Below, piece by piece: positions 47,928 through 64,000 of a stretch of 64,000 nt of DNA; the stretch's first letter is position 1, and every line of letters starts with the position of its first letter. Origin of the DNA: an uncultured Gammaproteobacteria bacterium. Lineage in GTDB: Bacteria; Pseudomonadota; Gammaproteobacteria; Eutrophobiales; Eutrophobiaceae. The stretch lies in the NCBI GenBank assembly GCA_943788005.1, contig CALSOP010000008.1, positions 129,463 through 193,462 on the forward strand. Direction: 5' to 3'. The translations under genes and the position numbers were made by a program. Below the pieces are notes generated by a model. It saw only the letters and a program-made list of their open reading frames with translations. It did no database searches and was not told where the DNA came from.

Positions 47928-48001
47928 ATCTGCACTATAAAACGTAATGGTTTTTCATTAATTCAAATCATACATTATGTCTCTCACGCACTGACTCAAA
48001 A

Positions 48002-49243
48002 ATGATTAATAAATTATCTATCTGGTTAAAAGAATATTGGCCTTGCATATTAATTTTGCTAACAATAATAGGGTTTGTTAGTAAGTCTCTCTACAACTAC
48101 CCGATGGGGATAATGGCCGTAATAGGTTTATATCGAGTTACACTATCAGCAAAATCTATTTGGAACGATCAAGTACAAAAAACATTTGTTATTGTATTTT
48201 TATGCTTATGGTTACCACTATTGCTGTCATTCCCAGATGCCGTTAATCAATCGCATTCAGCCAAAACTATCTTTCCCTACCTCAGGTTTCTATTTGCTGG
48301 GCTATTTATTATTCAGGAATTATCGAAAGATAAAAAACGATTACAGTTTATTGTTTATGCTGTATTTATTATTGTGACGTTTTGGTGTGCCGATGCTGCC
48401 CTTCAATTTTTTATCGGGCATGATTTGTTCGGATATCTATATGCTAAACAATTTAGTATATCTGGCATGTTTTACCCGAGAAATACTATTTCTCACGTAT
48501 GTTCAATACTCTCTGCTTTTTGTTTTTTTACGGTATACCAAAACACACATAAAGATAAATGGCTATGGTTGACGCTTTTGCCGCTTTTCTTTGTGGTTCT
48601 TATAAGTGGTAGGCGAGCTGCATGGGTAATGTTGGCGCTATCTTCTTTCGGTTTTTGTATTTATCTTTATTTATATTCTAATAATAAAAAAATGATATTA
48701 AAAATAACCGGGGTTATTACTCTTGCTATCAGTATTGCGCTTAGTTCAACGATAATATTACATAAACCCACGAATGATCGCTTTAAGGAAACATTAGGTT
48801 TATTTAGTAATAATTATGATTCTATAAATGTTGCTACAGCAATACGGTTGCCGATATGGGGAACTGCTTATACAGCTTTTAAAGACAATCCAATTAATGG
48901 TATAGGACCTAGAGGCTTTCGCCATGTTTACCAGGAATACGCATCAAAAGATAATTATTTTCAAAGTCAGACTCACCCCCATCTCCTCATTCTTGAAATC
49001 ATGACCGAAACAGGTGTGATTGGTATGCTAGGCTATTTGGTTTTGTTATTTCTGTTAGTAAAAAATCTGCTAAAGAAGAAAACATTAAGGAATGATTTTC
49101 CTTATATATTGCCTGTGTTTGTCGCTTTATTCCCCTTTAATGCGCATATGGCATTTTACGGTTCGATATGGTCGACTATGATCTGGTGGTTAATGGCTAT
49201 TTACTTTTCAAACATTCGTTTAAATGAACAACAGAATAGTTAA
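48002..49243 (+). CDS. O-antigen ligase family (WaaL/Wzy_C) membrane protein
   Basis: 413 aa with about 10-12 TM helices and a large loop with RRAAW/..H.. features typical of the Wzy_C domain. Confidence 0.6.
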   Translation: MINKLSIWLKEYWPCILILLTIIGFVSKSLYNYPMGIMAVIGLYRVTLSAKSIWNDQVQKTFVIVFLCLWLPLLLSFPDAVNQSHSAKTIFPYLRFLFAGLFIIQELSKDKKRLQFIVYAVFIIVTFWCADAALQFFIGHDLFGYLYAKQFSISGMFYPRNTISHVCSILSAFCFFTVYQNTHKDKWLWLTLLPLFFVVLISGRRAAWVMLALSSFGFCIYLYLYSNNKKMILKITGVITLAISIALSSTIILHKPTNDRFKETLGLFSNNYDSINVATAIRLPIWGTAYTAFKDNPINGIGPRGFRHVYQEYASKDNYFQSQTHPHLLILEIMTETGVIGMLGYLVLLFLLVKNLLKKKTLRNDFPYILPVFVALFPFNAHMAFYGSIWSTMIWWLMAIYFSNIRLNEQQNS

Positions 49244-49271
49244 CAAACGATTTTATGCTTGATTTTTTCAC

Positions 49272-49988
49272 TTACATGCCTTCATGTTTTTCCCTCATAA
49301 GTTGATTATATTTTTCCAGTTCATCCAATCTATCGACCTCTGAATCTTTAAAGTTTTCCTCCAGTCGCTGTTCATATCTTTCCAAAGCATCCAACCTGCC
49401 AGCTTCATATGCGTTGTTATACCAACGTTTGGCAATATCTGGATAAGAATGAAATGCAAAATCGGCAAGATAAAACATATCGTGTCTATATTCCGAGCCT
49501 AAGTCTTGTTCTACTTTTTCCGTTAACAATTTTTCCATCATCTTTGCACCATGATATCGGACAAAATATTCGTTTCTGATAATGACAGTCGGCGCACTCA
49601 AATAGTGCCTTGCCAGTTTCAACCTCCATTGGACTTCATCGTCTTTGTCTGCTGTCATTAATTTAAAAACCAAATCATATCGATTTTTCTCAAATTCTGT
49701 AATCTTGGTATATTCTGGAATTACCTTACTAAGACCAAGCCAAATAAGTAATAGAACATAAGTACAGAGGAAAATAATAAGACGGCAACGTCCTTTTGAA
49801 AAAACAGTTTTTTTAGTTTCTGATAATACAAATGTAAATAGAATAGATAAAAAAATAGAAATTATTGCAATATAAAATAATTCAATGGGTACTGCGCGTA
49901 ACGAAGCTATAACAACAGACAGAGCACAGGCAATTACTACCATTATTCCGATTATCCATGGTAGCTTTTGAGATGATGAATTGGGCAT
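49272..49988 (-). CDS. Hypothetical membrane protein (3 TM helices plus a helical soluble domain)
   Basis: 238-aa ORF with no recognised family. Confidence 0.4.
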   Translation of the reverse strand: MPNSSSQKLPWIIGIMVVIACALSVVIASLRAVPIELFYIAIISIFLSILFTFVLSETKKTVFSKGRCRLIIFLCTYVLLLIWLGLSKVIPEYTKITEFEKNRYDLVFKLMTADKDDEVQWRLKLARHYLSAPTVIIRNEYFVRYHGAKMMEKLLTEKVEQDLGSEYRHDMFYLADFAFHSYPDIAKRWYNNAYEAGRLDALERYEQRLEENFKDSEVDRLDELEKYNQLMREKHEGM

Positions 49989-50326
49989 GATTTGAATCGT
50001 CTTAATTTGAAGAGAATGAAGAATAATAGTCCTTATTTCTAAAGTCCATGCTATTGTTTAGTATTTCCCCCCTGGCGTTTGAGAAACAATGCGTATAAAA
50101 ATATATATAGGGACGATAAAACTGACAGGTGAGCGGGAATCGAGATGGTGTTAGGCAAAACCATGCTAAGCGTTTTATTGAATTTGCTTGAACGTGAGTG
50201 TTTTTTGCTATGATCGTTCAGTTATGTGTAAGCGCGTAGATTGATTGGTGCAGTGGTGAATATATAAGAGAAAAAAGGTGTTTTATATTTTTTTAAAGTC
50301 TTGTTAGAAAATATATGTAGTTGTAG

Positions 50327-50896
50327 TTATACAGGATTTTTTTCAGGGGAATTTTTATAGTATTGTTGTGCGGTTATACCAACAATAATAAGGTCCATGG
50401 GTTTTCCATTAAATAGATAATGATCTTTTAAAATCGCTTCTTCTTTCCATCCCGCTGATATGAATGCACGTGTACTTATTTTAATTTCAGCATACATACT
50501 AGCAACTAATTTATTCATTTTCATATCATTAAACGCATGGTTTGTTATTATATTAATTGCTTCAGTAGCATACCCTTTTCCCCATTCTGATGTTTCTCCA
50601 ATAAATAAACTGATTTCGGCTAATTTATGTTGTTTTCGTATCGGACCAAGTTTGATGTTGCCTATATGTTTATTATGAAGCTTTAAAAATATCCCAAATA
50701 AATATTCATTTTTTGATTTATTTTTATCAGTAATAAAATTTTTAATGCTTTGTATTGACTGTTTTTCATGTCTTGTTTCTAAGTAGCGGTTTACTTGGGG
50801 ATTATTTAACCAATCACTGTACGCCTTTGAAGCATCTACATGATCCAGGCCGCGTAAATACAGGGAACTACCTTCTAACCGGGGCGAATGGGGCAT
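50327..50896 (-). CDS. GNAT-family N-acetyltransferase (RimJ/RimL-like)
   Basis: LR.LD..DA....DWLN.P.V.RYLE N-terminal pattern and an acetyl-CoA loop (WGKGYATEA). Confidence 0.75.
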   Translation of the reverse strand: MPHSPRLEGSSLYLRGLDHVDASKAYSDWLNNPQVNRYLETRHEKQSIQSIKNFITDKNKSKNEYLFGIFLKLHNKHIGNIKLGPIRKQHKLAEISLFIGETSEWGKGYATEAINIITNHAFNDMKMNKLVASMYAEIKISTRAFISAGWKEEAILKDHYLFNGKPMDLIIVGITAQQYYKNSPEKNPV

Positions 50897-51152
50897 ATCT
50901 ACAGGAAGAATGTCTTTGTTAAGTTATTAGAAAAAAGCATTGTTCGATTTCAAAAGTTGTTTGTTGAGCTATAAGCTTATGATTTTAAATTAAATTTCCT
51001 AAAAAGCACCAAATAATATTGTAATTTCGAAACTTAAAGTGTTTTTGAATTATTTTCTCGATTAACGGCGACAAAACAAAATCATTTAAATTGCATATAA
51101 AACAATAGCATAGGATTCCTCTAGGTGTTTTTTTAATTTACAAAGCAGACTT

Positions 51153-51197
51153 GTTCATATTTTGAACGCAATTGTATATACTGTTCACCATATGAAC
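51153..51197. promoter_or_regulatory. Two GTTCA-N5-TGAAC palindromes 30 bp apart (candidate operators)
   Basis: GTTCAtatttTGAAC (51153-51167) and GTTCAccataTGAAC (51183-51197). The second covers the regulator ATG at 51192. Confidence 0.35.
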
Positions 51198-51798
51198 AAC
51201 AAAGATAAAGATGATTCTCTTACACTTGAAATCCTACAAGTTATTGAAAATCAGAATGATGTAACACAACGACATCTTGCAGATAAACTTGGAGTGGCTC
51301 TTGGTTTGGCAAACTCATACTTGAAACGCTGCGTATTAAAAGGACTGGTAAAGGTTCAGCAAGCGCCGGCTAATCGATATTTGTATTATTTAACCTTAAA
51401 AGGATTTGCAGAAAAAAGTCGATTAACAGCAGACTATTTAAGTACGTCATTTAATTTTTATCGCGATGCAAGTTCAAGTATTACTCAGATTTATCAACAA
51501 TATGAAGCAACTTGTTTAAAACGTATTTTGTTTTGTGGTGTTTTCTGAACTTGCAGAGATTGCTTCTATTAGATCCCATGATTATAAATTCAATATTGTA
51601 GGTATTTTTGACCCATTAACTGATAAGAAAAATTTTCTCGATCTTCAAGTCATTAATGATCTAAAAAAAGCTCCTGTATTTGACGCTTGTTTAGTAACTT
51701 CATTAAGTGATGCTCAAGAATTATTTGCATTGCTGAATAAAAATATTGCCCCTGAAATAATTTACGTTCCCTCAATATTGGGTATCAATAGAAATTAA
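51192..51798 (+). pseudogene. MarR-type EPS-associated wHTH regulator with a C-terminal extension, split by a +1 frameshift
   Basis: The wHTH part (VTQRHLADKLGVALGLANSYLKRCVLKGLV) ends ..ILFCGVF-stop. Removing one T from the run at 51539-51542 gives ..ILFCGVSELAEIASIRSH.., which joins it to ORF 51535-51798. Confidence 0.55.
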
Positions 51799-51880
51799 TT
51801 TATTAAGGTCAACTTGAAATGGTTGGCTAATAATTTCAAACGTAAAAAAATTATATACAGTGAAATTATTGCACTGTATT

Positions 51881-51891
51881 GCGGTAGCCTG
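51881..51891 (+). promoter_or_regulatory. ops-like element (GCGGTAGCCTG) in a JUMPStart-like leader
   Basis: It matches the RfaH recruitment consensus GGCGGTAGnnTG at 9 of the 10 specified positions. It is preceded by CAGTG...GCACTG and lies 22 nt upstream of the probable ABC-transporter ATG (51913). Confidence 0.5.
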
Positions 51892-51912
51892 CCTGTTAAT
51901 AATATATTTGAT

Positions 51913-53682
51913 ATGACCACATTTAATAAAATCTGGAAAATACTTACAGTAGAGCAGCATAAAAATGCTGTCATTTTACTTTTTCTGATGATTCTGGGAA
52001 TGCTTCTTGAAACATTAGGATTCAGTTTGCTTCTTCCAGCATTAGCATTAATGACACAAAATGATCTAGTCAATCAATACCCTTTCCTAAGACCATTTCT
52101 TGATTATCTGGGTAATCCATCTACAAACGAACTAATAGTAATTGGTATGATTATGCTTGCAATTGTTTATACAATAAAAGCATTATTTTTGGGCACACTT
52201 GCTTGGTTACAGGCAAAGTTTGCTTTTGCCGTTCAGGCGAATGTATCTCAGCGATTATTCAAAAATTATTTGTTTCAACCTTATACCTTCCATTTACAAC
52301 ATAACTCAGCTCAGTTAATTCGCAATACAACTAACGAAGTAAGTATGTTTAACGCAGTCACTCAGTCTGCATTGATGATAATAGCGGAAGGTTTGGTTTT
52401 TTTAGGTATTGCAACATTGTTGTTATTTATTGAACCTGTTGGAGCATGTTTAGTCATTACGCTTCTTGGTTTAGCAGGTTGGAGTTTTCACAAACTCACT
52501 AAAAATATGATCTTGAAATGGGGTGAAGCACGCCAATTTCACGAAGGCCTACGAGTCCAGCATTTACAACAGGGATTGGGTGGCGTGAAAGAGGTAAAGT
52601 TAATGGGACGAGAAAATGAATTTCTGTCGCAGTTTCGTATTCATAATTACGGTTCTGCGAAAATTGGTGAGTTTCAAACAACAGTGAAATCATTACCACG
52701 TTATTGGTTAGAACTTTTAGCTGTCATAGGATTAGTAACTTTAGTCATGGTTATGATGGAACAAAATAAGCCAATGAGTTCTATTGTGCCCACACTTGGT
52801 GTTTTTGTGGCTGCTGCATTTCGGGTGATGCCATCTGTTAATAGAGTTCTTAGTGCATTTCAGACCTTAAGGTTTGCTACGCCTGTGGTTAATATGTTGT
52901 ATGAGCAGCTACACCTCGTTGCAGAACACAAACATAATAATGTTCATGCGCCTTTTTCAATTAAAAATTCGATAGAACTAAAGGATGTTAGTTTTGCCTA
53001 CCCTGAGACCGCAAGTTTTGCTTTAAATAGTATAAATATTTCAATTCCACAAGGGTCAATGACAGGTTTCATTGGTACGACTGGAGCAGGAAAAAGTACA
53101 CTGGTAGATATAATACTTGGTTTGATTCACCCGACTAAAGGAACTGTATTTGTAGACAATACAGATATCCAAAAAGAAATACGTTCTTGGCAAGACTTAA
53201 TCGGCTATGTGCCGCAATCAATTTTTCTTACGGATGATACATTATTAAGAAATGTTGCTTTTGGGATACCTATAGACCAAGTGGATGAAGAAAAAGTCTG
53301 GAGTGCATTACGGTCTGCACAGCTTGATTCATTTGTTAGAGAATTAAGTTTGGGTTTGAATACCGTCGTTGGTGAAAGAGGTGTCCGTCTTTCCGGGGGG
53401 CAACGACAAAGAATAGGAATTGCTCGGGCTTTGTATCATGAACCTCAGATACTCATATTGGATGAAGCAACAAGTTCTTTAGATATTGATACTGAGCATG
53501 ATGTAATGAATGCAGTGAACGCTATGCATGGAGATAAGACGATTATAATTGTCACGCACAGACTTACAACTGTTGAAAACTGCGACCTATTGTATCGACT
53601 TGAGAAAGGTCGAGTCGTTAAAGAAGGCTCACCTGAATCAATGTTTAAAACAATTAGCCCTGCCGGGGCGTACAGCAGCTAA
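51913..53682 (+). CDS. ABC transporter, fused permease/ATPase (MsbA-like exporter)
   Basis: A six-TM N-terminal domain, Walker A GTTGAGKST, signature LSGGQRQR and Walker B ILILDEATS. The start at MTTFNKIW is chosen over the track start at 51814. Confidence 0.85.
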   Translation: MTTFNKIWKILTVEQHKNAVILLFLMILGMLLETLGFSLLLPALALMTQNDLVNQYPFLRPFLDYLGNPSTNELIVIGMIMLAIVYTIKALFLGTLAWLQAKFAFAVQANVSQRLFKNYLFQPYTFHLQHNSAQLIRNTTNEVSMFNAVTQSALMIIAEGLVFLGIATLLLFIEPVGACLVITLLGLAGWSFHKLTKNMILKWGEARQFHEGLRVQHLQQGLGGVKEVKLMGRENEFLSQFRIHNYGSAKIGEFQTTVKSLPRYWLELLAVIGLVTLVMVMMEQNKPMSSIVPTLGVFVAAAFRVMPSVNRVLSAFQTLRFATPVVNMLYEQLHLVAEHKHNNVHAPFSIKNSIELKDVSFAYPETASFALNSINISIPQGSMTGFIGTTGAGKSTLVDIILGLIHPTKGTVFVDNTDIQKEIRSWQDLIGYVPQSIFLTDDTLLRNVAFGIPIDQVDEEKVWSALRSAQLDSFVRELSLGLNTVVGERGVRLSGGQRQRIGIARALYHEPQILILDEATSSLDIDTEHDVMNAVNAMHGDKTIIIVTHRLTTVENCDLLYRLEKGRVVKEGSPESMFKTISPAGAYSS

Positions 53683-53698
53683 TTTGAGTTAGTTATAG

Positions 53699-54619
53699 GT
53701 GTTTACTAAACAATCGATAATTATTACTGGTGGCTCTGGTCTTTTAGCAATTAATTGGGCTATTGCACAACGTACAAAATACTCAGTAACTCTTGGGATG
53801 AACAAAAGGAATGTTACTCTAAAAGGCGTCAAGTCTGTTAAATTTCCAATGACATCAATTAATTCAATAGTCGATTATTTAAATAGCAATAAGCCAACGC
53901 TATTTATACATGCAGCTGGATTAACAAATGTAGAAAAATGTGAGTCAGAACCAGATTTGGCTAATTTTGTTAATGTTGAATTGTCAAGGAATGTTGCGGA
54001 TGCCTGCGCAATAACAGGTACAAAGCTTGTTCTTATTTCAACAGATCATTTGTTCTCAGGCAAGAATTCACTAGCGTCGGAATCAGATGAACTAGAGCCG
54101 CTAAATGTATACGGTGCCACCAAAGCAGAAGCGGAAAGTTATGCCTCTGAAAAATGCCCAAACGCATTAATAGTTAGGACCAATTTTTTTGGCTGGGGAT
54201 TAAAATATAGAAAATCATTCAGTGACATGATAATAAATGCATTAAGAAACAATAAAAAAATTACACTTTTTGAAGATGTATTTTATACCCCAATATTAAT
54301 TGAAACGCTTGCGAATACAATTCATCAACTAGCCGAATCAGGAGCACAAGGAGTTTATAATGTAGTTGGAGATGAACGCATTTCTAAACTAGAGTTTGGT
54401 TATAAATTGGCAAGGTGTTTTTCTTTGGATCCTGATTTAATTTCCCCTTTGTCAATATCAGAAAAAAACGACCTGGTAAGACGCCCCCATGATATGAGTT
54501 TATCTAATTCAAAAACGTGCAAATATCTCGGAAAAAAGATTGGCGACATAGAAAGCCAGCTAAATATTTTATATAAACAAGAACAACTTGGTTTAGTGAA
54601 GGAGCTTGAAAAGTTATGA
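53699..54619 (+). CDS. RmlD-like NAD(P)-dependent sugar-nucleotide reductase
   Basis: ITGGSGLL Rossmann motif, STDHLF, and catalytic YGATK. GTG start. Confidence 0.7.
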   Translation: MFTKQSIIITGGSGLLAINWAIAQRTKYSVTLGMNKRNVTLKGVKSVKFPMTSINSIVDYLNSNKPTLFIHAAGLTNVEKCESEPDLANFVNVELSRNVADACAITGTKLVLISTDHLFSGKNSLASESDELEPLNVYGATKAEAESYASEKCPNALIVRTNFFGWGLKYRKSFSDMIINALRNNKKITLFEDVFYTPILIETLANTIHQLAESGAQGVYNVVGDERISKLEFGYKLARCFSLDPDLISPLSISEKNDLVRRPHDMSLSNSKTCKYLGKKIGDIESQLNILYKQEQLGLVKELEKL

Positions 54620-55788
54620 TCCCGTATGGTCAACATCATATTGATGAGAGTGATATTCAAGAAGTAGTAAATGTGCTCAGACATGGAGACCTTACCCAAG
54701 GTCCAAAAATAAAGGAGTTTGAAAAAGCAATTGCCGAATATGTAAATGTAAAATATGCTGTCGCAGTTTCGAGTGGAACAGCTGCTTTGCATCTTGCAGC
54801 TATCGCTGCTGGAATTGATCCAGAACATCATTTAATAACCTCGCCTATCTCATTTGTTGCCAGCGCAAACGCTGCTTTGTACTGCGGCGGTAAAGTGATT
54901 TTTTCAGATATAAACCCTGATTCTATTAATCTTTGTCCCAATACATTATCTAATACATTACTAAAACATAATAATGTTCGTGCAATAATACCCGTTCATT
55001 TTGCGGGATTACCCTGTGATATGCAGCTAATCAAATCTATTGCAGATAAACATGGTGTTTCTGTTATCGAAGATGCCGCACATGCGTTAGGTGCAAAATA
55101 TGAAAATGGTGACATGGTTGGATCATGTGTTTATTCAGATGCTACGGTATTTTCTTTCCACCCTGTAAAAGCAATAGCCGCAGGGGAAGGTGGCATGGTT
55201 ACGACCAATGATGAATCACTCTATCGCAAGATATTAAGACTACGCAGCCATGGTATTAATAAGTTGGATGATCCAATGGAATTTCCAGATCAGGCAAATG
55301 AAGACGGGATTCCAACGCCTTGGTATTATGAAATGCAGGAACTTGGTTTTAATTACCGAATTACTGATATCGAGTGTGCTTTGGCACTTTCGCAGCTGAA
55401 AAAACTGGATAAGTTTCTGGATAGGCGTCGTGAGCTAGTTAAAAAATATAATGCAGCATTTTCTGATCTAAAGAATTGCCGTCCAGCACAAACAACCAGT
55501 ATTGAAAAAAGTGGCCATCACTTGTATGTGCTTCGTATTGATTACAAATCATTAGGTGTAAGTAGAGCAGAACTTATGCGAGAACTTAAACTTAATGAGA
55601 TTATTTGTCAGGTTCACTATATACCCATTCCGGCACAACCATATTATCGGAAACTAGGTTTTAATCCTGAAGATTATCCAAATGCATACTGCTATTATCA
55701 AGAAGCTTTGAGTATTCCTCTTTATTATGATTTAACAGATGAACAACAAATATACATTATAGACGTCTTTAAAAAGCTTCTAGCGTGA
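54616..55788 (+). CDS. pseC: UDP-4-amino-4,6-dideoxy-N-acetyl-beta-L-altrosamine transaminase (PseC-type DegT aminotransferase)
   Basis: IPYGQHHIDESDIQEVVNVLRHGDLTQGPKIKEFE is the PseC-type N-terminus. The PLP Lys region is SFHPVKAIAAGEGG. Confidence 0.8.
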   Translation: MIPYGQHHIDESDIQEVVNVLRHGDLTQGPKIKEFEKAIAEYVNVKYAVAVSSGTAALHLAAIAAGIDPEHHLITSPISFVASANAALYCGGKVIFSDINPDSINLCPNTLSNTLLKHNNVRAIIPVHFAGLPCDMQLIKSIADKHGVSVIEDAAHALGAKYENGDMVGSCVYSDATVFSFHPVKAIAAGEGGMVTTNDESLYRKILRLRSHGINKLDDPMEFPDQANEDGIPTPWYYEMQELGFNYRITDIECALALSQLKKLDKFLDRRRELVKKYNAAFSDLKNCRPAQTTSIEKSGHHLYVLRIDYKSLGVSRAELMRELKLNEIICQVHYIPIPAQPYYRKLGFNPEDYPNAYCYYQEALSIPLYYDLTDEQQIYIIDVFKKLLA

Positions 55789-56648
55789 AAATAGTATTAG
55801 GTACTGCACAGTTTGGGCTTGATTATGGTGTGGCAAATCAGCAAGGACAAATACAAAAAAGTAAAGCAAGAGACATACTTAATTATGCAAAAGAAAATGG
55901 TATCAGTGTACTTGATACAGCTATTGCTTATGGTGAAAGTGAACAGGTGTTGGGTGAGTTGGGGGTAAGCGAATGGGATATTATAACTAAAATTCCCTTG
56001 ATAAAGGAAAACAGACAAAATTATTTTCTCTCGCTAAAAGAAACACTAAGAAGCTCTTTACAAAGATTAAATGTATCAAATTTATATGGTGTGCTATTAC
56101 ATAGCCCCAAGCAATTATTAAGCACTGATGGCGAAAGAATATATCGAGCATTAGAAGAAATAAAGACTGAGGGCCTAATAAAAAAAATAGGGATATCAAT
56201 TTATGACCCGGTTGACCTGGATATACTTTGTGCTAATTTTGATTTTGATATAGTACAGGCTCCATTTAATATTATGGATCGCCGAATAATTAATTCTAAT
56301 TGGAATAAAAAGTTGGCAGAAAAAAATATTGAACTACATGTGCGGTCTATTTTCTTACAAGGTTTATTACTGCTCCCTCCTGATAAGCGTCCGAATAAAT
56401 TTAGCCAATGGAGTTCACTGTGGTCGAAATGGGATGCTTGGATAAGTGAGAATAATTTAACTCCGTTACAATCATGCCTGCATTTTGCGATGTCAAATTT
56501 ATCGATTAACAAAATTGTTGTAGGTATTGATAGTTGTGCTCAGCTTAAAGAGATACTCGAGTCAATATCCGGCGAGTTCCCAGAACCACCTGATGATTTA
56601 CAAAGTGACGACCTTACATTGATAAACCCATTTAACTGGCCTGAGTAA
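55785..56648 (+). CDS. Aldo/keto reductase
   Basis: LGTAQFGLDYG...LDTAIAYGESE pattern. 287 aa. Confidence 0.75.
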   Translation: MKIVLGTAQFGLDYGVANQQGQIQKSKARDILNYAKENGISVLDTAIAYGESEQVLGELGVSEWDIITKIPLIKENRQNYFLSLKETLRSSLQRLNVSNLYGVLLHSPKQLLSTDGERIYRALEEIKTEGLIKKIGISIYDPVDLDILCANFDFDIVQAPFNIMDRRIINSNWNKKLAEKNIELHVRSIFLQGLLLLPPDKRPNKFSQWSSLWSKWDAWISENNLTPLQSCLHFAMSNLSINKIVVGIDSCAQLKEILESISGEFPEPPDDLQSDDLTLINPFNWPE

Positions 56649-58675
56649 TGAAAATTATAGCTGTAGTACAGGCACGTATGGGCTCTAAACGTTTACCAAA
56701 TAAGGTAATGCAAACAATAAATGGTGTGCCGATGATAGAGTTACTACTGAATCGGTTATCAATGGTTTCATGTATAGACCAAATAATACTCGCAACACCT
56801 TCAAGTGCTAGTAATAGCATATTGAATGCTCATGTACGTAATTTAGGCTATGAAGTATACAATGGTAGTGAGAATGATGTGCTTGATCGATATTATCAGG
56901 CAGTAAAAGATAAACGTCCTGATGCTGTGATCAGAATAACGGGTGACTGTCCGTTAATTGATCCAAGCCTTGTTAATGATATTGTTAAAGCATTCATTGA
57001 ACAGAATGTAGATTACCTTAGCAATACGCTTGACCCTACTTATCCTGATGGTTTAGATACAGAAATCTTTACGTATAAATCACTTGAAAAGGCAGCGGAC
57101 CTTGCAAAACTGCCTAAAGAGCGTGAGCATGTAACGCCGTACATTTATGAGTCCGGTTTATTTAAAACTGCAAGTTATAAACATGCACAAGACCATTCTG
57201 ATAAACGTTGGACGGTTGATGAAGCTTCAGACTTTCAAGTCATTTCTTCTATTTATAATTACTTTAGTCCTTGTATAGATTTTAGTTGGCAGGATGTTTT
57301 AGCGTTACAAGAAAAAGAGCCAGAGTTATTCATGTTAAATCAACATCTAATGAGAAATGAGGGGACACATATGGGTGCTGGACAAAAACTTTGGAAAAGG
57401 GCAAAACAAGTTATCCCCGGAGGTAACATGTTGCTTTCCAAACGGCCTGAGATGTTTTTGCCTGAACAATGGCCCTCCTACTTTAGTAGAGCAAAGGGTT
57501 GTAAGGTTTGGGATCTGGATGATAAAGAATATATTGATATGTGTTTCATGGGCATTGGTACTAATATTTTGGGATATGGAAATCGTGAAGTGAATGATGC
57601 AGTTCATAGAACTGTTGATGCTGGAAATATGTCAACTCTAAATTGTCCTGAAGAAGTATATCTTGCCGAAAAACTAATTGAACTTCATCCGTGGGCCGAT
57701 ATGGTTCGTTTAGCCCGTACTGGAGGTGAAGCCAATGCCATCGCCATTCGTATAGCGCGTGCCGCATCTGGTAAAGATAAAATAGCCTTTTGTGGTTATC
57801 ATGGATGGCATGATTGGTATCTTGCAGCCAATCTAAAAGATGAAAAAAACCTTGCAGGTCATTTACTTCCTGGATTAGAACCAAGAGGTGTGCCTCAAAA
57901 TCTGCAAAATTCAATTTATCCATTTACATACAACAACATTGGTGAGTTAAAAGCTTTAATTCAAAACCATGAAATTGGTGTCATCAAAATGGAAGTGTTC
58001 CGTAATCACCAACCAGAAGATGATTTTCTAAAGAAAGTAAGGAAACTAGCAACAGAAAATAATATTGTTTTGATTTTTGATGAATGCACATCCGGTTTTA
58101 GACAAAATTTTGGTGGTTTACATAAAATATATGATGTAGAGCCAGATATTGCTGTCTTTGGAAAAGCTTTAGGTAATGGTTATGCAATTACTGCAATTAT
58201 TGGTCGACGTGAAATAATGGAAAGTGCTCAATCTTCATTTATTAGCAGTACTTTTTGGACTGAACGTATTGGTCCTACGGCAGCACTTAAAACATTAGAA
58301 GTAATGGAAGAATTGAAGTCATGGGAATTAATCACAGAGTCGGGTGAAAAAATAACACAGCGGTGGAAAGATTTAGCAGAAAGCTCAGGGCTACATATTA
58401 CAACTAGTGGAATGCCCGCTTTAACATCATTTTCAATAAATAGTCCTAATAAACTCTTATATAAGACACTCATAACTCAAGAAATGATGAAGAGAGGTTA
58501 TATCGCTGGTACGAGTATATATATATGTGTTGAACATACTCAGGATATTATAGATAAGTATTTTATTAATCTAGAACCGGTTTTTGATCTTATAAAAGAG
58601 TGTGAAGATGGGCGTGATGTAAATAGTTTTCTTAAAGGACCCGTTTGTCATGATAGTTTTAAACGACTAAATTAA
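56648..58675 (+). CDS. Fusion protein: SpsF-like cytidylyltransferase (about aa 1-245) and class-III PLP aminotransferase resembling glutamate-1-semialdehyde aminomutase (about aa 250-675)
   Basis: The N-terminus is IIAVVQARMGSKRLPNKV...ITGDCPLIDP. The C-terminus has GGNMLLSKRP.., LARTGGEAN, DECTSGFR, and a PLP Lys region FGKALGNGY. Confidence 0.75.
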   Translation: MKIIAVVQARMGSKRLPNKVMQTINGVPMIELLLNRLSMVSCIDQIILATPSSASNSILNAHVRNLGYEVYNGSENDVLDRYYQAVKDKRPDAVIRITGDCPLIDPSLVNDIVKAFIEQNVDYLSNTLDPTYPDGLDTEIFTYKSLEKAADLAKLPKEREHVTPYIYESGLFKTASYKHAQDHSDKRWTVDEASDFQVISSIYNYFSPCIDFSWQDVLALQEKEPELFMLNQHLMRNEGTHMGAGQKLWKRAKQVIPGGNMLLSKRPEMFLPEQWPSYFSRAKGCKVWDLDDKEYIDMCFMGIGTNILGYGNREVNDAVHRTVDAGNMSTLNCPEEVYLAEKLIELHPWADMVRLARTGGEANAIAIRIARAASGKDKIAFCGYHGWHDWYLAANLKDEKNLAGHLLPGLEPRGVPQNLQNSIYPFTYNNIGELKALIQNHEIGVIKMEVFRNHQPEDDFLKKVRKLATENNIVLIFDECTSGFRQNFGGLHKIYDVEPDIAVFGKALGNGYAITAIIGRREIMESAQSSFISSTFWTERIGPTAALKTLEVMEELKSWELITESGEKITQRWKDLAESSGLHITTSGMPALTSFSINSPNKLLYKTLITQEMMKRGYIAGTSIYICVEHTQDIIDKYFINLEPVFDLIKECEDGRDVNSFLKGPVCHDSFKRLN

Positions 58676-58683
58676 AAATAACC

Positions 58684-59763
58684 TTGAATATTTTATTTAG
58701 AGTAGATGCGTCACATGTGATAGGCATAGGACACTTAATGAGATGTCTGGCTTTAGCTGCTGAACTAAAGAAACATAATATGTATATATGTTTTATATGC
58801 AGAAATTTGCCAAAAAGCTTATATAACTTAGTAGAGAAAAACAAACATGATCTGATTGTTTTGAAACATGTCGAAGATATAAAACAACAAGATGAATTGA
58901 AGCACTCATTTTTCCTTGGGACGAGTCAGGCAACAGATGCAATAGATACTATAGAAGCAATATCTGACAAAAGTTGGGATTGGTTGATTATTGATCACTA
59001 CGCAATTGACAATAGATTCGAGATGACTTTAAAAAAGTATGTAGAAAGAATCATGGTTATTGATGATATTGCAGATCGCCAACATGAGTGTGATGTACTA
59101 TTAGATCAAAATCTTTACGCTGACATGGATGAACGTTATGTAGAGAAGGTGCCTGCAAGTTGCGCAATTCTTCTTGGTCCTGAATATGCACTTTTACGTA
59201 ATGAATTTGCCTGTTTACATAATAAAATAAAACCTAGGACAGGAGTAATTGAAAAGATTCTTGTTTTCTTTGGTGGTGTCGACCCTGAAAACCTTACTTC
59301 CTTATCAATAAATGCTATTAATAATTTATGTAATGAAAAATTGCATGTAGATGTGGTTGTAGGAACAGCCCATCCATATCGGCATGAGATTGAATCGGTT
59401 TGTAAATCTCTGAACTATAGTTGTCATGTCCAAACAGAACGAATGGCCGAACTTATGGCTGAATCTGACTTGGCAATTGGGGCAGGAGGGTCTGCAAGTT
59501 GGGAAAGATGCTGTTTAGGTTTAGCGACGATTTCTGTAGCCTTTGCAGATAACCAGTATGCAATCGCAAAACAATTGGATCGAGTGGGAGCTAGTATTTT
59601 TCTGGGCAATCATCATTCAGTCAGTCAAACAAAAATAGAAGATGCAATGTCTGAACTTATTCTCGATCGTGACAGGGTGAAGTCAATGTCTTCCACGGCA
59701 TATTCAATTGTAGACGGAAATGGTACAAAAAGAGTTTGTGAGATACTAAATCAATTTCAATGA
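58684..59763 (+). CDS. pseG: UDP-2,4-diacetamido-2,4,6-trideoxy-beta-L-altropyranose hydrolase (PseG-type)
   Basis: ILFRVDASHVIGIGHLMRCLALAAELKK is the PseG N-terminal signature, with a GT-B-like C-terminal half. TTG start. Confidence 0.75.
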   Translation: MNILFRVDASHVIGIGHLMRCLALAAELKKHNMYICFICRNLPKSLYNLVEKNKHDLIVLKHVEDIKQQDELKHSFFLGTSQATDAIDTIEAISDKSWDWLIIDHYAIDNRFEMTLKKYVERIMVIDDIADRQHECDVLLDQNLYADMDERYVEKVPASCAILLGPEYALLRNEFACLHNKIKPRTGVIEKILVFFGGVDPENLTSLSINAINNLCNEKLHVDVVVGTAHPYRHEIESVCKSLNYSCHVQTERMAELMAESDLAIGAGGSASWERCCLGLATISVAFADNQYAIAKQLDRVGASIFLGNHHSVSQTKIEDAMSELILDRDRVKSMSSTAYSIVDGNGTKRVCEILNQFQ

Positions 59764-60407
59764 AGATTACGCTTCTTTGTACAAATAAAAATCATCCTGT
59801 TATGCCGTATTTGGAGGAATGGCAATCTAGGATGAACGTTGAACATGACGTCGACATAGTGGACAGCAAAGAAAAATTATCCTGTGGAGATATTTTATAT
59901 CTTGTTTCATGTTCACAAATAATTGGTATTAATGAGCGCAAGAAATACGGAGTCTCCCTTGTACTCCATGCTAGTGACTTACCTAAAGGCAGAGGATGGT
60001 CACCATACATTTGGTCAATAATAAAGGGAATGACAGAAATTATTGTATGCGTGATTGAAGCAAATGACTCTGTTGATACTGGTGATATCTGGTTACGTAA
60101 AAAGATTACATTACAAGGTCATGAGCTGCTTCCCGAGATTAATGAAATATTATTTCGTGTAGAATTAGATTTGATGACTGAAGTAGTGGAACAGTTCGAT
60201 AAAATCAAACCTAAAACACAACTAGGTGACCCCGGTAGTTATATGCCCAGACGTACTCCTGAGGACAGCCGTCTTGATCCGAGTAAAAGTATTGCAGAAC
60301 AGTTTGATTTATTGCGAGTTGTTGATTCCGATAGATTTCCTGCGTTTCTGGATTTTCGAGGCGTAAGGTATATCTTAAAAATAGAAAAAGCTAATGAACC
60401 TGAATAA
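59760..60407 (+). CDS. Formyltransferase-family protein (Fmt/PurN N-terminal-domain type)
   Basis: HASDLPKGRGWSP corresponds to the H-x-S-L-L-P-x-x-R-G catalytic motif, and DTGDI lies downstream. 215 aa. Confidence 0.7.
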   Translation: MKITLLCTNKNHPVMPYLEEWQSRMNVEHDVDIVDSKEKLSCGDILYLVSCSQIIGINERKKYGVSLVLHASDLPKGRGWSPYIWSIIKGMTEIIVCVIEANDSVDTGDIWLRKKITLQGHELLPEINEILFRVELDLMTEVVEQFDKIKPKTQLGDPGSYMPRRTPEDSRLDPSKSIAEQFDLLRVVDSDRFPAFLDFRGVRYILKIEKANEPE

Positions 60408-60463
60408 AACATTATTCATTACCAATTTTAAAATGATTTAAATTTTTATAGGAAACCGATTTT

Positions 60464-61165
60464 ATGAAGATTGCTGTTTTACCGGCGCGAGGTGGTAGTA
60501 AGAGAATTCCACGAAAAAATATAAAGGATTTCTGTGGAAAACCAATGATCGCATGGTCAATTGAAGTAGCAAAAGCAGCTGATTTGTTTGATCATATTAT
60601 TGTTTCAACAGATGATTCTGAAATTGCGGACAAATCTATCGAGTATGGTGCTGAAGTCCCTTTCATCAGACCAGCTGAACTCTCTGATGACTTTACGGGC
60701 ACAAACGAGGTCATAGCACATACTGTACGATGGGCAATTGAACAAGGTTGGCCTGTTTCTTCTGTCTGTTGCATATATCCAGCTGCGCCATTTATTCAAA
60801 TTGATGATTTAAAACAAGGTTTGGAAGAACTAGAAAATGGCGGATGGGATTATGTTTTTCCTGCGACAGATTTTTCAGCTTCTATATTTAAATCATTACG
60901 ACAACTAGAAAATGGCGGCATTGAAATGTTCTTTCCGGAAAATTACACAAAAAGAAACCAAGATCTACCTATGGCACTTCAGGATGCGGCCCAATTTTAT
61001 TGGGGACGTAAAGATGCATGGCTAGAAGGAAAGAAGTTTTTTAATGGAGAAACTTACGCCGTAAAAATACCCGCGTGGAGAGTGCAGGATATTGATACAC
61101 CTGATGACTGGGCGCGTGCGGAAATTATTCATAAAGCAATATTAGAAAAAAACATGAATAAATAA
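60464..61165 (+). CDS. pseF: Pseudaminic acid cytidylyltransferase (PseF-type CMP-NulO synthetase)
   Basis: IAVLPARGGSKRIPRKNIKDFCGKPMIAWSIE is the PseF/NeuA-family N-terminus. Confidence 0.8.
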   Translation: MKIAVLPARGGSKRIPRKNIKDFCGKPMIAWSIEVAKAADLFDHIIVSTDDSEIADKSIEYGAEVPFIRPAELSDDFTGTNEVIAHTVRWAIEQGWPVSSVCCIYPAAPFIQIDDLKQGLEELENGGWDYVFPATDFSASIFKSLRQLENGGIEMFFPENYTKRNQDLPMALQDAAQFYWGRKDAWLEGKKFFNGETYAVKIPAWRVQDIDTPDDWARAEIIHKAILEKNMNK

Positions 61166-61171
61166 TTAGAT

Positions 61172-62215
61172 ATGATAATAAAAAACCAAAAAATTGGTAT
61201 TGATGAACCTCCTTTTATCATTGCTGAAATGTCAGGAAACCACAATCAGTCATTAGATAGGGCATTGCAAATGGTAACTGAAGCTGCAAATTCAGGAGTT
61301 GATGCAATAAAACTTCAAACATTCACTGCAGATACTATTACTCTTGATGTGCGATATGGAGATTTTCTTATTGATGATGAAGAAAGCCTATGGAATGGAA
61401 AAAATCTTTATGATTTATATAAACTAGCTCACACACCTTGGGAATGGCATGCCCCTATTATGGAACGGGCACAAGAACTCGGGTTAATATGTTTTAGTAC
61501 ACCGTTTGATGAAAGTGCCGTTGATTTTTTAGAAACACTTGATGTGCCTGCATATAAAATAGCCTCTTTTGAAAATATCCATCTGCCACTCATTAAAAAA
61601 GTTGCATCAACGGGTAAGCCTATATTGCTTTCTACTGGGATGGCTAGTTTAACTGAGCTTGGTGAAGCTGTTGATGTTATAAATAAAGCAGGTTGTAAAG
61701 ATCTAGTGATGCTCAAATGCACCAGCACTTATCCAGCAAAACCAACAAGTAGTAATATAATGACAATACCTAATATGAAAGATGTATTTAATTGCCAAGT
61801 CGGATTGTCAGATCATACGTTAGGTATTGGTGTGGCGATAGCCGCCGTAGCACATGGTGCAACAGTGATTGAAAAACATTTTACTCTTAATCGGAAAGAT
61901 GGTGGTGTGGATAGTGCGTTCTCGTTGGAACCAAGTGAATTTCGTTCATTAGTCGAGGAAACAAAACGAGCATGGCAGTCTTTAGGGAATATCAGTTATG
62001 GAACAAGTGACGCAGAAACGAATTCAAAAATATTCAGGCGCTCTCTTTATATTTCAGAGGATGTAAAGAAAGGGGATGTTTTAACTGAGAAAAACCTTCG
62101 TTGTGTGCGGCCAGGGATGGGAATGCCGCCAAAATACATAGATATTTTACTAGGAAAACGCGTGAATCAGGATTTAAGAAAAGGGACGCCAATGAATTGG
62201 GGTTTAATTGAATAG
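61172..62215 (+). CDS. pseI: Pseudaminic acid synthase (PseI-type, NeuB family)
   Basis: PPFIIAEMSGNHNQSLDRAL, LSDHT, and a C-terminal SAF domain (antifreeze-like). Confidence 0.85.
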   Translation: MIIKNQKIGIDEPPFIIAEMSGNHNQSLDRALQMVTEAANSGVDAIKLQTFTADTITLDVRYGDFLIDDEESLWNGKNLYDLYKLAHTPWEWHAPIMERAQELGLICFSTPFDESAVDFLETLDVPAYKIASFENIHLPLIKKVASTGKPILLSTGMASLTELGEAVDVINKAGCKDLVMLKCTSTYPAKPTSSNIMTIPNMKDVFNCQVGLSDHTLGIGVAIAAVAHGATVIEKHFTLNRKDGGVDSAFSLEPSEFRSLVEETKRAWQSLGNISYGTSDAETNSKIFRRSLYISEDVKKGDVLTEKNLRCVRPGMGMPPKYIDILLGKRVNQDLRKGTPMNWGLIE

Positions 62216-62225
62216 TTAGTTTTGT

Positions 62226-63188
62226 ATGTACAGTGTCTTAATAATAGGCTTAGGGAATATTGGTATGGGTTATGACCTTAACCATGATCCAGATAAATAT
62301 ATTCTTTCCCATGCCAGAGCGTTTCAAAAACATCCTAAATTTAAATTAATTGCAGGGGTTGATGTAGATATAGATCGCCGCGAGTTATTTGAATCACACT
62401 ATGGATGCCCTGCATTTACTACAGTTAGTGAAGCGTTAAAAAAGTCTAAAGCAGATGTGATCGTCGTCTCAAACCCAACCAAGCAACATATTCGTGCTTT
62501 GCAAGAAATTATTGAGTTTGGTCTACCCAGAGCTGTTTTATGTGAAAAACCTATAGCGTTTGATGTTAAACAGGCAGATGAAATAACAACTATTTTCAAA
62601 AAAAGAGGGTGCGAATTTTATGTAAATTACATGCGTCGTTCAGATGTAGGTGTTCATGAGCTATATGAGCGAATACATAGTGAGAATATTATTACGCCAG
62701 TGAAAGGGAACGTGTGGTATACAAATGGGTTATTTAATAATGCATCACATTTTATAAATCTATTGGAATACTTATTTGGAAAAGTTGAGAAATCAATTGT
62801 ACTTGATTCGGGCAAGAGGTCGATTTGTTCTGATCCAGAACCCGACTTTCAGCTTTCATTTGAAAAAGGAAAATTTAACTTCGTAGCTTTACCTGGCAAT
62901 AGTTTCTCTCATAACGTTCTTGAAATTATTGCATCAAATGGACGGATTCGATATGAGAATGGTGGAGAAAAAATAACATGGGAAGCCATAGAGTCAAATA
63001 AATTATTTCCAGGCCATGTTACTTTAAGTCTTGAAAAAGAAGTTTTACCTTCAGACTACAGACGTATTCAGTGGCATGTGGTCGATCAGCTCTCAGTATC
63101 TATGGATGGTGGGTCTGCACGAATTTGTAATGGAGATGATGCTCTAGGAACATTATATGTTCTTGACGATATTGAAAATCAATTATGA
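62226..63188 (+). CDS. Gfo/Idh/MocA-family oxidoreductase
   Basis: The N-terminal Rossmann motif IIGLGNIGMGY and a CEKP motif. 320 aa. Confidence 0.7.
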   Translation: MYSVLIIGLGNIGMGYDLNHDPDKYILSHARAFQKHPKFKLIAGVDVDIDRRELFESHYGCPAFTTVSEALKKSKADVIVVSNPTKQHIRALQEIIEFGLPRAVLCEKPIAFDVKQADEITTIFKKRGCEFYVNYMRRSDVGVHELYERIHSENIITPVKGNVWYTNGLFNNASHFINLLEYLFGKVEKSIVLDSGKRSICSDPEPDFQLSFEKGKFNFVALPGNSFSHNVLEIIASNGRIRYENGGEKITWEAIESNKLFPGHVTLSLEKEVLPSDYRRIQWHVVDQLSVSMDGGSARICNGDDALGTLYVLDDIENQL

Positions 63189-64000
63189 ATAAGAATAGTA
63201 GAAATAAAAAGGGTCAATTAGTTATCAATGGTGGTGAAAAAGTTATTCAAAAACCATTTGAGCGTTATCAGTCAATTGGCAAAGAAGAAGTTGAAGCAGC
63301 CAAGTCTGTTATTGAGTCAGGTGTGTTGTCAAAGTTTCTTGGTTGCTGGCATGAAGATTTCTATGGAGGCCCAAAGGTAAGAGAATTTGAAGAACTCTGC
63401 AAAGATTATTTTGATGTAAAGCATGCTATAACAGTCAATTCTTGGACTTCAGGATTAATTGCAGCAGTCGGTGCTATAGGAATCGAACCTGGAGATGAAG
63501 TCATAGTTAGTCCATGGACAATGTGTGCAAGTGCTACAGCAATTTTGCATTGGAATGCAATTCCTGTATTTGCAGATATTGAAACAGAGACCTTTTGTCT
63601 TGACCCTGAGTCTGTCAGAGCAAATATCACATCAAATACAAAAGCGATAATGGCTGTTGATATTGGTGGTCACTCAGCAAATATGACTAAGTTAAATGCA
63701 ATTGCAGAGGAATACAGTCTTAAAATTATTTCAGATACAGCACAAGCTCCGGGAGCATTGTATAAAGGTAAATATGCAGGCACATTAGCTGATGTTGGGG
63801 GGTATAGCCTTAATTATCACAAACATATTCATACTGGCGAAGGAGGAATACTCGTCACTAATGATGATGATATAGCAGAACGATTGCGCTTAATCAGAAA
63901 TCATGCCGAAGCTGTCGTAGGAGATAAAGGCGTAGAAGATATTAGTAATATGATTGGTCACAATTTCAGGCTAGGTGAAATTGAGTGTGCAATAGGCATC
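63185..64000 (+). CDS. Second DegT/DnrJ/EryC1/StrS-family aminotransferase, 3'-partial (runs off the window)
   Basis: The ATG at 63185 overlaps the previous stop and the frame is open to the window end. It encodes ...VIVSPWTMCASATAILHWNAIPVFADIE... and SLNYHKHIHTGEGG (the PLP Lys region). Confidence 0.8.
   Translation, partial: MNKNSRNKKGQLVINGGEKVIQKPFERYQSIGKEEVEAAKSVIESGVLSKFLGCWHEDFYGGPKVREFEELCKDYFDVKHAITVNSWTSGLIAAVGAIGIEPGDEVIVSPWTMCASATAILHWNAIPVFADIETETFCLDPESVRANITSNTKAIMAVDIGGHSANMTKLNAIAEEYSLKIISDTAQAPGALYKGKYAGTLADVGGYSLNYHKHIHTGEGGILVTNDDDIAERLRLIRNHAEAVVGDKGVEDISNMIGHNFRLGEIECAIGI

Follow-up and report, generated by a model that had tools for sequence, protein, structure and literature searches.

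What does a protein that joins a cytidylyltransferase to an aminotransferase contribute to a locus that already encodes a cytidylyltransferase of its own? The question is raised by a 64,000-nucleotide stretch of contig CALSOP010000008.1 (GenBank assembly GCA_943788005.1, an uncultured gammaproteobacterium of the Eutrophobiaceae), hereafter the window. Within it, a single open reading frame (ORF) of 675 amino acids carries an SpsF-like cytidylyltransferase (CT) domain followed by a class III, pyridoxal phosphate (PLP)-dependent aminotransferase (AT) domain resembling glutamate-1-semialdehyde aminomutase (GSAM), and it lies among genes for the synthesis of pseudaminic acid (Pse). Based upon sequence relatives and gene neighborhood, we propose with moderate confidence that the ORF encodes a bifunctional enzyme of nonulosonic acid (pseudaminic-type) synthesis. 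The AT domain, together with the aldo/keto reductase (AKR) encoded directly upstream, would exchange a hydroxyl group, likely that at C8, for an amine, and the CT domain would activate the product.

In the proposed sequence of steps, the AKR would act first, on the free nine-carbon acid, oxidizing one of its secondary hydroxyls (C8 being the likeliest position) to a ketone, and the AT would transaminate that ketone to an amine. The fused CT would then turn the tailored sugar into its CMP form for glycosyltransferases. The separate PseF of the window would activate the untailored sugar, and the locus would in this way supply two CMP-sugars. We infer the action of the AT and AKR on the sugar itself, the direction of their reaction and its position alike.

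The ORF list and translation confirm one open frame on the forward strand with no internal stop, at exactly the coordinates first assigned to it. All four motif strings quoted in an initial annotation, made from the sequence alone, were located in the translation, namely ARMGSKRLPNKV (residues 9-20), GDCPLIDP (99-106), DECTSGFR (478-485) and FGKALGNGY (504-512). Its two domain assignments were likewise upheld by a Pfam domain search, in which CTP_transf_3 (PF02348) matched residues 4-172 with 101.1 bits (gathering cut-off 22.6) and Aminotran_3 (PF00202) matched residues 278-622 with 135.3 bits (cut-off 30.5). The predicted structure of the fusion (mean pLDDT 85) shows two compact domains, with a mean pLDDT above 90 across most residues of the CT domain. 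Low values are confined to the linker and the N-terminal arm of the AT domain, dropping from about residue 231 and reaching a minimum at residues 259-278. Both domains are intact and, as modeled, well folded.

The CT domain carries the A-R-x-x-S-x-R-x-P-x-K (QARMGSKRLPNK) and G-D-x-P (TGDCP) signatures of the CTP_transf_3 ulosonate cytidylyltransferases, and residues Q8, A9, R10, S13, R15 and K19 of the former, as well as T98, D100, C101 and P102 of the latter, are invariant among 31 fused homologues. PDB entry 6OEW, a structural-genomics entry titled 'Cytidylyltransferase', was matched over residues 1-232 (E 1.8e-40), while KdsB and NeuA structures match over the N-terminal half only. A full-length homologue is FlmC of Caulobacter (32% identity over residues 3-227, E 2e-35), whose sequence was translated from the synthetic flm operon given in the supplementary material of PMC7591256. 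FlmC performs the CMP-activation step and completes a Pse pathway of six enzymes that was rebuilt in E. coli (PMC7591256). Both proteins fall outside the PseF equivalog TIGR03584 (28.1 bits for the CT domain and 27 for FlmC, cut-off 205.7), and the PseF of the window resembles either of them only across approximately 50 N-terminal residues. FlmC (PMC7591256) and SpsF of Bacillus subtilis (PMC7439481), each about 240 amino acids long, stand alone without an AT, whereas the CT here is fused, and their pathways lead to plain di-N-acetyl sugars; the likeness to SpsF is by description, FlmC alone having been aligned. These comparisons suggest that the CT domain represents a second, functionally supported class of CMP-nonulosonate synthetases, one that is normally the sole such enzyme in its pathway.

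A survey across genomes, as the initial annotation had suggested, revealed that the fusion is widespread. It was found in at least 596 species genomes in a scan of one genome per species, and most of these loci match residues 1-675. In a protein search limited to 8000 candidates, the best 120 database relatives all span both domains (655-682 amino acids, 68-81% identity) and include Nitrospirota, Desulfuromonadales and Pseudomonadota. Among the loci listed were representatives of Verrucomicrobiota, all proteobacterial classes, Cyanobacteria (Moorena, Prochlorococcus, Synechococcus), Chlorobiota, Leptospira, Bacteroidota, Acidimicrobiia, Gemmatimonadota, SAR11, SAR86, SAR116 and Marinimicrobia, with Legionellaceae and Chlorobium genomes also represented. 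In Kaiserbacteria and Methanobrevibacter metagenome-assembled genomes (MAGs) the CT and AT are separate and adjacent. A full-length fused match was present in 7 of 400 genomes sampled evenly from the class to which the window belongs. The AT-domain tree is at odds with taxonomy, and at least eight fusion or fission changes are needed to account for it. Within this very widespread family, the window gene is typical.

For the genetic context of the fusion, 87 loci (cited below by L numbers, and genomes by G numbers) were annotated by BLAST against reference proteins from the window and from one Nitrospirota locus. Cassette counts refer to the 39 biosynthetic loci that had 6 kb or more of sequence to either side, for which flanks were read to 6-10 kb each side. 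The canonical order was PseB-PseC-AKR-CT~AT-(PIG-L)-PseG-PseI, in which PseG frequently carries a fused C-terminal extension, formyltransferase-like or of another kind. The AKR was present in 38 of the 39 loci and is an obligate partner of the fusion. A NeuB/PseI-family synthase was found in 36, PseB in 35, PseC in 31, and PseG or a PseG fusion in 27. A NeuA-type PseF was encoded in only six, and within the flanks read the fused CT is the only cytidylyltransferase in the remaining 33; the window differs in having a PseF as well. Two loci (L067, L073) lack the CT and have the AT alone after the AKR, with a PseF-type gene downstream, and so the CT domain is exchangeable with PseF across loci. 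Taken together, the sole occurrence of the CT in 33 of 39 loci, its replacement by PseF and its homology to FlmC indicate that the substrate is most likely a tailored nonulosonic acid. The same three observations speak against the suggestion in the initial annotation that the fusion is separate from the formation of CMP-nonulosonates and acts on a different substrate such as a side-chain donor. The point made alongside that suggestion, that a dedicated PseF is also encoded, is correct. The gene is a true PseF, well above the model cut-off (Table 1), and the pair is best explained as two cytidylyltransferases for two sugar variants.

The AT domain was compared with solved structures by sequence and by fold. 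PDB sequence matches were GSAM (6W80, 2.5e-37), FumI (6HBS) and a C-6' aminotransferase (7LLD). The nearest solved relatives by sequence are GSAM, FumI, which is the aminotransferase for fumonisin aminopentol, and GenB3/4, the C-6' aminotransferases of aminoglycosides. Foldseek matches were GSAM, PctV (3-dehydroshikimate transaminase), FumI and GenB3/4. Residues K506, D478 and E479 (FDECTSGFR) and a GGEAN loop are invariant among 31 homologues, and D478 occupies the position of the cofactor aspartate by alignment to GSAM. HemL, the GSAM of tetrapyrrole synthesis, is among the closest folds and the best curated family, and it shares the PLP lysine and the aspartate with the AT, which lies instead in a context of sugar synthesis. 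All curated HemL models scored far below their cut-offs (TIGR00713, 196 of 527 bits; PRK00062, 205 of 398; PRK06209, 250 of 486), and the AT is therefore regarded as GSAM-like but not HemL. A separate HemL-like gene is present elsewhere in the genome (G000:C1:445832-446866). The subgroup of GSAM, FumI, GenB and PctV aminates aldehydes or ketones, and the target carbon of FumI adjoins a terminal methyl group, which is the local structure at C8/C9 of 9-deoxy nonulosonic acids.

The AKR belongs to the same arrangement at the level of single bases, as its stop codon overlaps the ATG of the fusion by one shared base (TAATG). Motifs DTAxxYG, TK and LLHSP were recognized by eye. The best NCBIfam model was KidO-like, with 162 bits under a cut-off of 244, and the AKR is consequently not assigned to that family. 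The only characterized relative in architecture is the EpaA/EpaB system of Acinetobacter baumannii prophages, in which EpaA (CTP_transf_3~Aldo_ket_red) and the short-chain dehydrogenase EpaB convert Pse5Ac7Ac into 8-epi-Pse5Ac7Ac, as shown by nuclear magnetic resonance (PMC12053666). EpaA combines an N-terminal CTP_transf_3 domain with a tailoring enzyme in one polypeptide, has a redox partner and acts beside the CMP-Pse synthetase of its host. The fusion is analogous in architecture, with a putative tailoring domain, and the coexistence of PsaF with EpaA in Acinetobacter may parallel that of PseF with the fusion in the window. The tailoring domain of EpaA is an AKR, the family of the gene translationally coupled to the fusion here, the likeness being one of architecture, with the sequences not aligned. 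The two systems differ in that the fused partner here is a class III AT and the AKR is separate, and no EpaB-type short-chain dehydrogenase was found between PseC and PseI in the window or in the canonical cassette; amination would be expected, not 8-epimerization. Searches of phage records with the AKR and with the whole fusion protein returned only unrelated AKR and HemL matches.

The same AKR and CT~AT also accompany a second core pathway, which consists of PseB-like, RmlD-like and NeuB-like proteins (the last approximately 30% identical to PseI) and lacks both PseC and PseG. Since the cassette serves two different core pathways, its target should be a position common to both products, which leaves the C4 or C8 hydroxyl. 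Amination at C8 is the most economical solution because it agrees with the exchange of CT for PseF, the CT fusions of both AKR and AT, the action of EpaA at C8 and the occurrence on two core pathways. More tentatively, and as a possibility we would not rate as probable, the AKR and CT~AT could yield a nonulosonic acid with a third amino group, e.g. 8-amino-8-deoxy-pseudaminic acid. The same logic is known from Shewanella, where KdnB and KdnA form 8-amino-Kdo by oxidizing a hydroxyl of the free ulosonic acid and transaminating it before CMP-activation. The analogy goes no further, as that system involves an eight-carbon sugar, a primary C8 alcohol, a metal-dependent alcohol dehydrogenase, an AT of another family and no fusion.

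Published gene clusters provide a link between genotype and glycan. Aeromonas group I islands carry pseB-pseC-AKR-pseF-class III AT-pseG-pseI in subgroup IA and extra genes in IB-IE, with the AKR and AT present in 90 of 96 group I strains (PMC7874193). The O-antigen cluster of L. pneumophila Sg6/Sg12 has genes of the same types, though their order differs (PMC3694923). In both, the CT and AT are split while here they are fused, a comparison drawn from published gene content with no direct sequence comparison. The split cassette was noted by the authors of both studies (PMC7874193, PMC3694923), who assigned it no function. A. hydrophila AH-1 belongs to subgroup IA, its island containing only pseB, pseC, AKR, pseF, class III AT, pseG and pseI (PMC7874193). 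Its single Pse-like glycan has a mass of 403 Da (oxonium ion at m/z 404), not 316 Da, and shares low-mass fragments with Pse while other fragments lie one m/z unit off acetylated Pse (PMC4691044). An odd residue mass implies an odd number of nitrogens, and genotype and chemotype in AH-1 are compatible with an extra amine. For L. pneumophila, 4-epilegionaminic acid of non-Sg1 strains was considered as a product of the split cassette and rejected, as its D-glycero-D-talo configuration differs from Pse at four centers according to our own comparison of the configurations; the serogroup assignment, too, is uncertain. Elsewhere, a Vibrio CT~AKR fusion is thought to replace NeuA (PMC7371886), and Shewanella oneidensis SO_3269, a cytidylyltransferase called 'much larger than canonical' in papers that leave its domains undescribed, may be the fusion examined here. 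A 2026 paper on Clostridium Pse does not mention the cassette.

Seven stand-alone AT orthologues (L078, L079, L080, L082, L083, L085, L086), 63-70% identical, were found in a different setting. Their hosts are Devosia riboflavina, Devosia MAGs, and marine and uncultured Alphaproteobacteria or Pseudomonadota, some represented by single-cell genomes. They form one clade nested within the fused biosynthetic clade (support 89/88); in the genome scan, matches of detached AT proteins to the fusion begin at residues 238-248. Each of the seven closes an operon whose earlier genes encode an Opp-type ABC transporter and a NanA-like lyase (in L082, 294 bits against a cut-off of 281), and in some loci NanE and a ROK kinase (NanK) also precede it. 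Neither CT nor AKR was found at these loci. Neighbors include genes for an M81 peptidase, DHDPS, a class IV aminotransferase and PhyH, and the 410-amino-acid protein preceding the detached AT in Devosia had no Pfam, NCBIfam or PDB match.

Several points weigh against amination at C8. AKRs are mostly NADPH-dependent reductases, so that oxidation is the less common direction. We know of no 5,7,8-triamino nonulosonic acid that has been described, and a full-text literature search for 8-amino nonulosonic acids returned nothing relevant. No assay of any CT~AT family member and no characterized orthologue were found in the literature searched, in agreement with the initial annotation, which had regarded the chemistry of this module as not established. 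The mass of the AH-1 glycan is equally compatible with an isomeric acetamidino derivative. Only CMP-NulOAc2 was reported from Ca. Accumulibacter, and a two-nitrogen sugar from Kuenenia (SugarBase preprint), which is relevant if the strains hold the cassette. The AT is the most conserved protein of the cassette, with a median identity to the window of 70%, compared with 52% for the CT, 42% for the AKR, 43% for PseC and 49% for PseI (neighbors 42-58%); such exceptional conservation could mean a common small-metabolite substrate rather than a variable sugar. Furthermore, AT orthologues without CT or AKR in NanA/NanE/NanK operons are not obviously explained by C8 amination. The NanA context and the conservation of the AT together leave room for a deaminating role, a small common substrate, or action at the hexose stage.

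A deaminating role, which we consider unlikely, would reverse the chemistry. The AT would remove an amine, either installed by PseC or exposed by PIG-L, the AKR would reduce the resulting ketone to a hydroxyl, possibly with inversion, and the CT would activate the hydroxy or epimeric acid with no gain of nitrogen. FumI, the structural neighbor of the AT, works as a deaminase with pyruvate as acceptor, which fits such a scheme, as does the PIG-L deacetylase that adjoins the fusion in 8 of 39 loci. Reduction is moreover the usual direction for an AKR, the AKR domain of EpaA being described as a reductase (PMC12053666), and deamination would suit the catabolic clade in NanA operons. The dominance of two-nitrogen or di-N-acetyl CMP-sugars in Kuenenia and Accumulibacter would also agree, if the cassette is carried there. 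However, amination by PseC followed by deamination would be wasteful, and three loci without PseC or PIG-L (L039, L040, L060) offer no free amine yet keep the AKR and CT~AT. In addition, the odd mass of the AH-1 glycan suggests that it contains one or three nitrogens rather than two.

The small-substrate alternative, improbable in our estimation, follows the initial annotation and holds that the AT and AKR build or modify a side chain or its donor, for instance an amino- or hydroxy-acyl group for N5 or N7, and that the CT activates a non-sugar or an acylated sugar. Conversion of 4-aminobutyrate to 4-hydroxybutyrate classically proceeds by a class III AT and an aldehyde reductase, and nonulosonic sugars are known to carry N-linked hydroxybutyryl groups. 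High AT conservation, together with use of the AT outside sugar synthesis, would fit a small common metabolite, and the window already holds a PseF. Yet in the annotated loci neither a CoA ligase nor an acyl carrier protein nor a dedicated acyltransferase co-varied with the cassette. The CT, moreover, belongs to the ulosonate-specific CTP_transf_3 family, is a homologue of FlmC and is the sole cytidylyltransferase in most loci, while the sugar backbone is the target of the homologous CT~AKR fusion EpaA.

Action at the hexose stage has a similarly low probability. Here the AT would act on the nucleotide-hexose 4-keto product of PseB as an alternative to PseC or a counterpart of different stereochemistry, with the AKR as an alternative 4-ketoreductase, and the fusion would serve co-regulation only. 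The absence of a DegT-type aminotransferase near the cassette in L039, L040 and L047 is consistent with this, and in the window genome, where PseB was not detected and an RmlD-like protein is encoded instead, the early steps are already non-canonical. Against it, PseC is also present in 31 of 39 loci, and all NDP-4-keto-sugar aminotransferases known to us are of the DegT family, not class III. CT fusions of both AT and AKR point instead to the free-acid stage, beside CMP-activation. Lastly, an artefact of assembly or a frameshift that merged two ordinary genes into the single ORF has a negligible probability: natural split versions exist (Aeromonas, PMC7874193; L. pneumophila Sg6, PMC3694923; and L053, L071, L075, L076, L081, L084 and L087), but the same fusion of about 675 amino acids, with a conserved junction, recurs in hundreds of independent assemblies from many phyla and effectively rules this out.

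Nonulosonic surface sugars shape phage recognition, immune recognition and motility. Of the unexplained additions to their gene clusters, the AKR and CT~AT cassette is one of the most common, and it occurs in some of the most abundant marine bacteria. One solved reaction would re-annotate thousands of genes labeled 'glutamate-1-semialdehyde aminomutase', could reveal a new class of sugar and would explain the presence of two cytidylyltransferases at some loci, that in the window among them. If C8 amination is correct, a triamino sugar of a chemically undescribed class would decorate the surfaces or flagella of very many bacteria. Being isomeric with the acetamidino derivative PseAm (C13H23N3O7), the triamino form may have been assigned wrongly in surveys by mass spectrometry. 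The detached clade of Devosia and marine Alphaproteobacteria would then serve in the salvage or catabolism of such amino sugars.

The genes surrounding the fusion are co-directional and overlapping or nearly abutting (Table 1). GC content is 33-37% at 48001-64000, compared with 40-43% in the remaining window, and the fusion occurs in 2 of 22 congeneric genomes (66% identity, no internal stops), which fits a variable, horizontally exchanged surface-polysaccharide island. A search of plasmids for near-identical DNA gave no match. PseB (UDP-GlcNAc 4,6-dehydratase) was not detected in assembly G000 (85.5% complete), where the RmlD-like reductase occupies its usual place. Of the congeners, G010 likewise has the RmlD-like protein in the place of PseB, and G015 has PseB.

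Table 1. Positions in the window of the fusion ORF, its parts and the neighboring genes.
Feature	Position	Strand	Basis or remark
PglK/MsbA-like ABC exporter	start 51814	+	
RmlD-like reductase	53699-54619	+	occupies usual PseB place
PseC (UDP-4-amino-4,6-dideoxy-AltNAc transaminase)	54616-55788	+	TIGR03588, 498 bits (cut-off 423.5)
AKR, 287 aa	55785-56648	+	Pfam Aldo_ket_red, 111 bits
Fusion ORF	56648-58675	+	CTP_transf_3 N-terminal, Aminotran_3 C-terminal
SpsF/FlmC-type CT domain, residues 1-232	56648-57343	+	PF02348, PDB 6OEW, FlmC homology
CTP-binding motif QARMGSKRLPNK, residues 8-19	56669-56704	+	aligns to KdsB, NeuA and PseF N-termini
GDCP acidic motif, residues 99-102	56942-56953	+	aligns to GDEP of KdsB and GDCP of 6OEW
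Linker, approx. residues 233-245	57344-57382	+	between end of 6OEW alignment (residue 232) and start of GSAM alignment (approx. residue 246)
GSAM-like class III PLP AT domain, residues 246-675	57383-58675 (stop included)	+	PF00202, PDB and Foldseek matches
PLP-binding lysine K506 in FGKALGNGY	58163-58165	+	aligns to GSAM Schiff-base block 'fgkiigggm'
PseG (UDP-sugar hydrolase)	58684-59763	+	TIGR03590, 307 bits (cut-off 153.6)
Formyltransferase-like protein, 215 aa, PseH slot	59760-60407	+	Formyl_trans_N, 40 bits
NeuA-type PseF, second cytidylyltransferase	60464-61165	+	TIGR03584, 290.7 bits (cut-off 205.7)
PseI (pseudaminic acid synthase)	61172-62215	+	TIGR03586, 504 bits (cut-off 340)
Gfo/Idh/MocA oxidoreductase	start 62226	+	
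Second DegT aminotransferase	start 63185	+	

The formyltransferase-like protein is fused to PseG in other genomes (e.g. 715 amino acids in L001). In the window it keeps the histidine and the aspartate of the HxSxLPxxRG motif, but the catalytic asparagine two residues before the histidine is missing (LVLHASDLP). The best solved relative, 1ZGH, likewise is without the catalytic asparagine. Judging from these residues, the protein may perhaps be no ordinary N10-formyltetrahydrofolate transferase. In L014, L017, L018 and L024 the PseG frames reach approximately 500 amino acids, about 150 longer than the PseG of the window, and the extension may be a fused PseH-type acyltransferase.

The cassette without PseC and PseG was found in L036, L039, L040, L043, L047, L060, L061 and L075. 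A small GT2-like protein (212-298 amino acids) is encoded in L039, L040 and L060, the loci checked, and may replace the UDP-sugar hydrolase. In Neptuniibacter this variant cassette adjoins a Maf flagellin glycosyltransferase. In L049, a Chitinophagaceae MAG, a CT~AKR fusion with EpaA-like architecture lies directly upstream of CT~AT, which gives each putative tailoring enzyme a cytidylyltransferase-like domain of its own.

Beyond the window, the same contig encodes a GNAT protein, two proteins without an assigned family, HisH/HisF-type amidotransferase subunits, and deoxysugar and methyltransferase genes. In L088:1519-6159, which is the downstream part of the contig, the HisH- and HisF-like genes are flanked by three proteins without a Pfam match (298, 377 and 413 amino acids), and the set resembles acetamidino-forming genes in other nonulosonate loci. 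It is followed by genes for a sugar nucleotidyltransferase, an RmlC-like protein, a C-methyltransferase, a radical SAM protein and a CmcI-like methyltransferase. A second module after PseI was observed in other loci as well, in which a stand-alone SpsF-like CT, sharing approximately 35% identity with the fused CT, is accompanied by a Gfo/Idh/MocA oxidoreductase and a DegT aminotransferase. It occurs in the window (62226-64000, continued in L088:1-1504) and in L017, L022, L029, L035, L037, L041, L048, L073, L076 and L092. The version in the window comprises the oxidoreductase, DegT and GNAT genes, with the NeuA-type PseF before PseI replacing the SpsF-like CT. By the families of its members, this module appears to be another 'oxidize, aminate, activate' set within the same loci.

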